Shown: in pieces, positions 28,524-28,835 of the stretch | Layout: each line of letters opens with the position of its first letter | Numbering within the stretch: the first letter of the stretch is position 1 | Assembly: GCF_030013595.1 (NCBI RefSeq) | Contig: NZ_CP122768.1 | Length of the DNA: 64,000 bases | DNA from: Escherichia coli | GTDB lineage: Bacteria; Pseudomonadota; Gammaproteobacteria; Enterobacterales; Enterobacteriaceae | Direction: 5' to 3' (one strand) | Translations under genes and position numbers: made by a program | Notes under the pieces: model-generated | Told to the model about the DNA's origin: nothing | The model's input: only the letters and a program-made list of their open reading frames with translations | Database searches by the model: none

Positions 28524-28532
28524 GACATTGCT
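28524..28532. repeat. IS10 target-site duplication, right copy (GACATTGCT)
   Basis: identical to 27186-27194. Confidence 0.9.
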
Positions 28533-28546
28533 TTTCCTTCCGCCAT
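28524..28546 (-). other. arnB: Orphaned 5' end of arnB (codons 1-8, MAEGKAMS) still attached to the native promoter
   Basis: minus-strand ATG GCG GAA GGA AAA GCA ATG TC runs into IS10 and meets TGA immediately. Confidence 0.7.
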
Positions 28547-28626
28547 TGAATACCTGTCCACTTATATTTGCTATAAAGAGTGTTGTGTATATTTTGCCAT
28601 TTGGAGCAAAATTTTAAGGATAGAAT

Positions 28627-28643
28627 ATTAACTTAACCTTAAG
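28627..28643 (-). promoter_or_regulatory. Candidate PmrA/BasR box of the arn promoter (CTTAAG-GTTAA-GTTAAT)
   Basis: reverse complement of attaacttaaccttaag matches the YTTAAK-n5-YTTAAK direct repeat; about 100 bp upstream of the native arnB start, in the ais-arnB divergent region. Confidence 0.5.
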
Positions 28644-28835
28644 AAACTAATATTAGACGTAAATATTGAAATTTTTATATTTTTTCTTATTTAGGCTTTG
28701 CATTTGGCAAAATTTTGAGGCATTTTGCCGGCATCGCAGGATTTTTAATATTACACCAACTGCTAATTATCGCCAGAAATGTCGCTCAATTTCACGGTAA
28801 TTGTCTGGTTGCGCTTGTCTATAGGTGGAGTTTAC

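Follow-up and report, generated by a model that had tools for sequence, protein, structure and literature searches.

An IS10 insertion at the arnB start codon separates the PmrA/BasR-controlled ais-arnB promoter region from the arn operon in an Escherichia coli chromosome

Introduction

The modification of lipid A with L-Ara4N by ArnBCADTEF is a main chromosomal route to polymyxin and colistin tolerance and is normally turned on by PmrA/BasR. What becomes of such a switch when an insertion sequence settles between the regulated promoter and the operon? The question is raised by a 64-kb stretch of E. coli chromosome (the window), with the gene order nuo-men-pmrD-arn-ais-nudI-yfaZ, in which a copy of IS10 lies between arnB and ais. 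A preliminary description concluded that the divergent promoter region remains intact and now serves only ais and an eight-codon arnB stub. The answer developed below is that the arn operon has probably exchanged one kind of transcriptional control for another, while ais keeps the sequences that it had.

The IS10 insertion

The element is a complete IS10 of 1329 bp (27195-28523, plus strand). Its ends are canonical, with the outside end (CTGATGAATCC...) at 27195 and the inside end (...GGGGATCTCTCAG) at 28523, and widespread IS10 copies match it with 100% identity over its whole length. The transposase reading frame (27302-28510, plus strand) encodes 402 amino acids and matches Pfam DDE_Tnp_1. 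The assignment to IS10, of the IS4 family, is thus based on the length, both ends, the 402-residue DDE transposase and a 9-bp target duplication. The duplication, GACATTGCT, is found at 28524-28532 (right copy) and 27186-27194 (left copy) and fits the IS10 target consensus NRCNNNGYN (PMC4574204). On the arnB strand the right copy reads AGCAATGTC and includes the arnB ATG, and the left copy regenerates the ATGTC of arnB. In silico excision of IS10 together with one copy of the duplication gives exactly the sequence of a sister strain with an empty site (NZ_CM149870.1). A search of the 64-kb window with both end sequences returned no further IS10 copy. The separation of the ais-arnB control region from the arn operon by IS10, as put forward in the preliminary description, is therefore confirmed.

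The ais-arnB control region and its PmrA box

The region left on the ais side of the element (28524-28835, 312 bp) has no mismatches to the sister strain, and many other E. coli share it at 100% identity. It matches a strain without the insertion throughout, and the control region can be called intact, as had been proposed. Identity of at least 99% over these 312 bp is seen in only 1244 of the 5,426 complete E. coli genomes, and the 35-mer surrounding the PmrA box is identical in 5374 of 5426.

The PmrA/BasR box, CTTAAGGTTAAGTTAAT (CTTAAG-GTTAA-GTTAAT), is located at 28643-28627 on the minus strand, where it matches both the consensus and a published motif instance exactly. Experimentally verified Salmonella PmrA boxes follow the rule CTTAAG-N5-XTTAAT (PMC3973317); as applied here, the criterion was a direct repeat of the half-sites CTTAAG and NTTAAT (YTTAAK) with a 5-bp spacing, and this is the arrangement that the box displays. 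It is the sole exact match to CTTAAG-N5-NTTAAT in 64 kb, where 0.05 would be expected by chance. The looser pattern YTTAAK-N5-YTTAAK with one mismatch yields five matches against 3.3 expected, which alone is not significant. Furthermore, the window carries the same 19-mer, TTCTTAAGGTTAAGTTAAT, that is given as the PmrA motif instance of MG1655 b2253/yfbE (arnB) in supplement file 2 of PMC1525208, where the Salmonella counterpart is TTCTTAATGTTAATTTAAT. Uniqueness in the window and identity to the b2253 instance bear out the position and orientation first ascribed to the box. Judged by its sequence, it is the already catalogued PmrA/BasR site of E. coli arnB and nothing new.

The intergenic region was aligned across four genera (the window, MG1655, E. 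albertii, Citrobacter sp. R56 and S. enterica diarizonae). The PmrA box is the best-conserved block of this alignment and is nearly invariant from E. coli to Salmonella. Boxes are also present at -115 to -126 from arnB in E. albertii, Citrobacter, Salmonella and Phytobacter. Which of the two divergent genes does the box chiefly serve? Citrobacter species that have no adjoining ais still keep it, 115-126 bp upstream of arnB, and arnB therefore appears to be its primary client. Downstream of the box, after 10 bp, comes TAAAAT (28616-28611, minus strand), the predicted -10 hexamer of the PmrA-dependent arnB promoter. The four-genus alignment (TAAAAT, TAGCAT, TAATCT, TAGGGT) shows no variation at T28616, A28615 or T28611, and transcription is predicted to start near 28604. 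The Cappable-seq supplements contained no match for the start-site coordinates of arnB or ais. The dependence of ParnB on pmrA has been reported (bioRxiv 10.1101/2020.05.05.080051), as has the activation by PmrA of pbgP, pmrC and pmrG (ais) in E. coli (PMC3140997).

The arnB start codon

On the minus strand, the sequence from the ATG at 28546 reads ATG GCG GAA GGA AAA GCA ATG TCC TGA (MAEGKAMS*). The TGA arises at the inside end of IS10, which gives a stub reading frame at 28546-28520, or simply 'MS*' if the conserved ATG at 28528 is used. Which ATG starts arnB? PGAP places the start at the second (379 aa), whereas the MG1655 annotation has 385 aa (MAEGKAMSEF...). Among 80 species representatives recovered by ArnB, homology begins at MS(D/E)F in every one, an in-frame ATG at -18, six codons upstream, is present in only four, and an AAGGA-type Shine-Dalgarno sequence precedes the ATG of MS(D/E)F in 66. 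In most Citrobacter species the ATG found upstream (ATGGCTTGA) does not share the arnB frame, and a TGA stop comes directly after it. The corresponding native Shine-Dalgarno sequence of the window, AAGGA (28539-28535, minus strand), is 6 nt upstream of the ATG at 28528, and IS10 has cut it off together with the promoter.

MAEGKAMS is thus probably not the ArnB N-terminus, the true start being the second ATG (MSEF...), and the MG1655 start looks over-extended, with the 379-aa form favoured over that of 385 aa. Since the 80-species comparison and PGAP agree on the second ATG, GAAGGAAAA is best read as a ribosome-binding site rather than as codons, and IS10 would therefore sit between nucleotides 5 and 6 of the arnB coding sequence. 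The eight-codon stub was correctly read as MAEGKAMS followed by a stop; however, most of it would be 5' leader and Shine-Dalgarno sequence, with only 'MS*' to follow. As originally stated, transcription from the PmrA promoter toward arnB would, by position and orientation, enter the inside end of IS10.

The arn operon beyond the element

On the far side of IS10, the ATGTC regenerated by the target duplication leaves arnB complete (27190-26051, minus strand; 379 aa, MSEF..., no internal stops) and arnCADTEF intact. The ArnB protein is identical to that of the sister strain and gives a full-length match to Pfam DegT_DnrJ_EryC1. The genes arnC, arnA, arnD, arnT, arnE and arnF (26047-19840, minus strand) are all intact and free of internal stops, and arnC-F keep their own start contexts; pmrD is intact too. 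Within the operon, the proteins differ from those of the sister strain only at ArnF residue 16 (codon at 20181), where the window has A and the sister has T. In addition, arnC differs synonymously at 25823.

What has changed is the sequence ahead of arnB, which is now without its native promoter, leader and Shine-Dalgarno sequence and is preceded by the IS10 outside end. The only Shine-Dalgarno-like run at the new junction, GGGGA, is 12 nt from the arnB ATG and adjoins a hairpin. With its Shine-Dalgarno sequence replaced by IS10 end sequence, ArnB would be poorly translated. Inside the element, an ATG at 27250 on the minus strand, which is IS10 bp 56 and part of the RNA-OUT stem, shares the arnB frame and could give a 399-aa fusion; no Shine-Dalgarno sequence was found ahead of it (dG about 0).

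What could transcribe the operon in this position? The full-length RNA-OUT, the transcript of pOUT, was found at 27309-27240 on the minus strand (Rfam RF00240, 98.8 bits, model positions 1-70). It starts at 27309, IS10 bp 115, and reads toward the outside end and arnB, whose ATG at 27190 is 50 nt past the RNA-OUT 3' end on the same strand. In the predicted fold the RNA-OUT stem-loop is followed by an outside-end hairpin that has no U tract, and neither scan nor fold gave a terminator between pOUT and arnB. The locus thus combines two sequence features looked for in pOUT-driven activation: an outside end that abuts the gene with pOUT co-oriented, and no intervening terminator. This orientation had been overlooked in the preliminary description. 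By eye, neither an extended -10 nor a clear -35 of pOUT is convincing, and its placement is drawn from the Rfam match and the identity of the element to canonical IS10. RNA-OUT is mostly a discrete 70-nt species, and so the amount of read-out is uncertain. Read-out from pOUT into adjoining DNA activates genes in that orientation (PMC2744996) and has been put at about 10% of lacUV5 (PMC9330008).

A proposed course of events

We therefore start from an ordinary divergent ais-arnB control region, with what appears to be a single strong PmrA/BasR box 10 bp upstream of the predicted arnB -10. A complete IS10 has transposed into AGCAATGTC, a stretch of nine bases with the arnB start codon in it. The PmrA promoter, a leader of about 76 nt and the arnB Shine-Dalgarno sequence now lead into the inside end and specify a peptide of two or eight codons at most. 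PmrA-driven transcripts would be untranslated inside IS10 and would mostly end there through polarity. The arn operon would lose its inducibility by Fe3+, low pH and PmrD, and would receive instead a weak constitutive read-out from pOUT, as is classical for IS10 and Tn10. As a whole, this reading (arn withdrawn from PmrA control and weakly transcribed from pOUT, ArnB under-translated, ais still responsive) is one that we hold to be probable, with a confidence somewhat better than even.

The earlier view of the locus was a simple polar knock-out, in which arn is silent and the PmrA promoter serves ais and a dead-end stub. IS10 does part the promoter from the operon, the stub does end at a TGA in the IS10 end, the arnB Shine-Dalgarno sequence is lost, and a C-rich stretch of the antisense RNA (27884-27765) could load Rho. 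Set against this, pOUT and RNA-OUT are aimed at arnB with no terminator in between, an orientation that gives downstream expression in published cases (PMC2744996, PMC9330008), and arnC-F are intact with their own start contexts. We consider a silent operon unlikely; to judge by these sequence features, a change to weak constitutive expression is more likely for arn than plain inactivation. The claim that the promoter region serves only ais and a stub is accordingly right as to the decoupling, but it understates what remains of arn, namely a complete arnB, an intact arnCADTEF and pOUT directed toward them, and it mis-assigns the start codon.

The ais side of the region

ais (pmrG) occupies 28836-29438 on the plus strand and encodes 200 aa from a GTG start, as annotated in the sister strain and in strain 7/2 (Pfam His_Phos_1). 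The ais side shows no difference from the sister strain, and it is untouched by the insertion, as was claimed from the outset. Because everything on this side is unchanged, ais should stay responsive to PmrA. In serum, ais is down-regulated together with arn, basRS and yjdB (eptA) (PMC4145685).

Does ais answer to the same box as arnB? We infer that it does; whichever site it uses, its control sequences are within the unaltered 312 bp. The alternative is that ais is controlled by a separate site, or indirectly, and that the box at 28627-28643 then serves the stub alone. In its favour, Citrobacter species without an upstream ais have the box at an unchanged distance from arnB, a weak motif of its own was put forward for Salmonella ais (at -65..-47) in a published screen (PMC1525208), and a second conserved block lies at 28697-28726. 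However, when all 17-mers of 28524-28835 were scored on both strands, only the known box, read in either direction, exceeded 9/12, and in both this scoring and the alignment the proposed Salmonella motif is without an E. coli counterpart. A second PmrA box serving ais was therefore rejected. Moreover, owing to its TTAA cores the box can be read as a direct repeat from either strand: on the plus strand, toward ais, it reads ATTAAC-N5-CTTAAG and scores 10/12. Wosten and Groisman are said to have described, in 1999, a PmrA footprint in the pmrG-pbgP intergenic region, which also speaks against separate control. We regard control of ais from elsewhere as rather improbable.

A candidate promoter toward ais, TAGACG-16-TATATT (28654-28681, plus strand), scores 9/12 in the consensus scan, which is no better than chance. 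The A/T-rich -10-like block at 28660-28667 is conserved, with A28661, A28663, T28664 and A28665 invariant. An outward promoter toward ais at the inside end of IS10 was also considered. Promoter activity has been reported from both IS10 ends (PMC4574204), but the promoter scan gave no sigma-70-like site facing ais at this inside end, and the candidate was rejected.

The second conserved block, at 28697-28726, lies between the PmrA box and ais and is shared by E. coli, E. albertii, Citrobacter R56 and Salmonella. On the arnB strand it reads AAAATGCCTYAAA...GCAAAG. In E. coli it includes an inverted repeat, GGCAAAAT/ATTTTGCC, which is not conserved in Salmonella. A promoter, a sigma-54 site, a hairpin and a known RNA were each considered and rejected: the block has no convincing hexamer pair, the repeat is not kept in Salmonella and there is no Rfam match. 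The block could be part of the ais leader or a site for another regulator.

A divergent ais homologue upstream of arnB was found in three of the 80 species (E. albertii, Citrobacter sp. R56 and S. enterica diarizonae). From this distribution, ais looks like a late addition beside a pre-existing PmrA-controlled arnB promoter.

Transcription from the PmrA promoter into IS10

How far would RNA polymerase travel from the PmrA promoter once inside the element? The scan gave no intrinsic-terminator-like site on the minus strand between 28604 and 27190, and the antisense RNA of IS10 is mostly G-rich, not C-rich, the window at 27884-27765 being the one C-rich exception and a possible Rho entry site. 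Given the lack of an intrinsic terminator and the single C-rich window, PmrA-dependent read-through into arn is possible: transcription would cross the whole of IS10 antisense to the transposase gene, and arn would be partly PmrA-inducible on top of pOUT. Yet an early stop followed by 1.3 kb of untranslated RNA is a classical substrate for Rho-dependent polarity, a C-rich window that might receive Rho is present, and IS10/Tn10 insertions are strongly polar in the classical literature. Such read-through seems to us distinctly unlikely.

A bolder proposal is that the insertion has created a new regulatory link. Fe3+, mild acid or low Mg2+ (via PmrD) would fire the arnB promoter into the IS10 inside end and produce a long RNA antisense to the entire transposase gene, so that transposase expression and transposition would respond to envelope stress, while pOUT would give arn a signal-independent basal level and thereby shift the baseline of polymyxin tolerance. 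We hold this to be very unlikely, and return to the reading in which PmrA transcripts mostly end inside IS10 and arn depends on pOUT.

Origin and distribution of the insertion

Neither IS10 junction was found in the 5,426 complete E. coli genomes. The insertion is a strain-private mutation of an ordinary kind and no new regulatory system. The 13.2-kb men-pmrD-arn segment (14000-27194) is itself rare, with 99% identity in only five of the 5,426 genomes. Two UK pig isolates match best (4 mismatches in 13,195 bp), and the rest of those listed do not exceed 98%. Both of these near-identical relatives have the empty site. The junction between the arnB promoter and start is uninterrupted in 5410 of 5415 genomes; E. 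coli MB06232, described below, is among the exceptions. On this count, disruption of the arnB promoter boundary by insertion sequences is rare, with at least one other case. That the insertion is an assembly artefact or was acquired in culture, as the lack of either junction among the 5,426 genomes and the known jumping of IS10 during laboratory handling (PMC4574204) might suggest, is hard to reconcile with a clean full-length copy, a perfect consensus-fitting 9-bp duplication and precise restoration on excision, and is highly improbable.

Several other features of the window emerged from these comparisons. The men-pmrD-arn allele (14000-27194) is rare, whereas the ais-side intergenic region is 100% identical to that of many strains, which suggests a recombination boundary near arnB/ais. 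In yfaX/rhmR (reading frame 32244-32564), which encodes an IclR-family regulator, an extra G at 32552 relative to the sister strain causes a frameshift that leaves 106 aa instead of 260; the gene may truly be a pseudogene, or a homopolymer may have been misread in sequencing. In the nuoN-yfbM spacer, an IS200/IS605-family tnpA element of the sister strain (sister locus 6487-7191) is missing from the window (at about 7191-7197). With the IS10, the window and the sister therefore differ by at least two IS events. A cluster of ten substitutions within 46 bp (36826-36871) falls in a locally repeated region beside an ISNCY-family transposase, and the rest of the 50 kb shows isolated differing positions only.

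Implications

If the favoured reading is true, the strain should be unable to induce the arn defence, yet ais, eptA and the other members of the regulon should still be induced. Such a naturally occurring 'split regulon' mutant would help to tell apart what each PmrA target contributes. The closest relatives are pig isolates, from a setting in which colistin has seen use. Beyond the one strain no new principle is involved, the event being of a known kind (displacement of a promoter by IS10, with possible pOUT read-out). As a by-product, the 80-species comparison lends support to the annotation of ArnB from the second ATG over the longer MG1655 form.

Comparison with known systems

The PmrA box is that of the Salmonella and E. 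coli pbgP genes (arnB, yfbE, pmrH): the E. coli sequence, TTCTTAAGGTTAAGTTAAT, is the same, the half-site rule is the same, and the Salmonella pbgP box, CTTAATGTTAATTTAAT, has the same position relative to arnB. The difference is in what follows the box, which here is the inside end of IS10, 104 bp downstream, instead of the arn operon.

For the other end of the element, classical Tn10 turn-on of downstream his genes is the same kind of pOUT-driven expression as that envisaged here. Further examples are the activation of otsBA in evolved rpoS mutants (PMC2744996) and of acrEF in Salmonella (cited in PMC9330008). In all of these the outside end likewise adjoins the gene, pOUT is co-oriented with it and a regulated native promoter is displaced. 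In those cases, however, the element entered a promoter or leader and left the ribosome-binding site of the gene in place, whereas here it lies inside the nine bases that contain the start codon, so that the arnB ATG is kept only through the duplication and the Shine-Dalgarno sequence is lost. Furthermore, activation is here a prediction, and no selection is known.

A natural counterpart at this locus is E. coli MB06232 (NZ_CM129885.1; locus 3640-3720), in which 12 nt separate the arnB ATG from an IS1A end upstream of it. There, the element is IS1 rather than IS10, the PmrA box, ais and nudI are absent, with yfaZ following IS1, and nothing is left to decouple. It is nevertheless an independent natural insertion event at the same boundary, by which arnB has again been cut off from its PmrA box.
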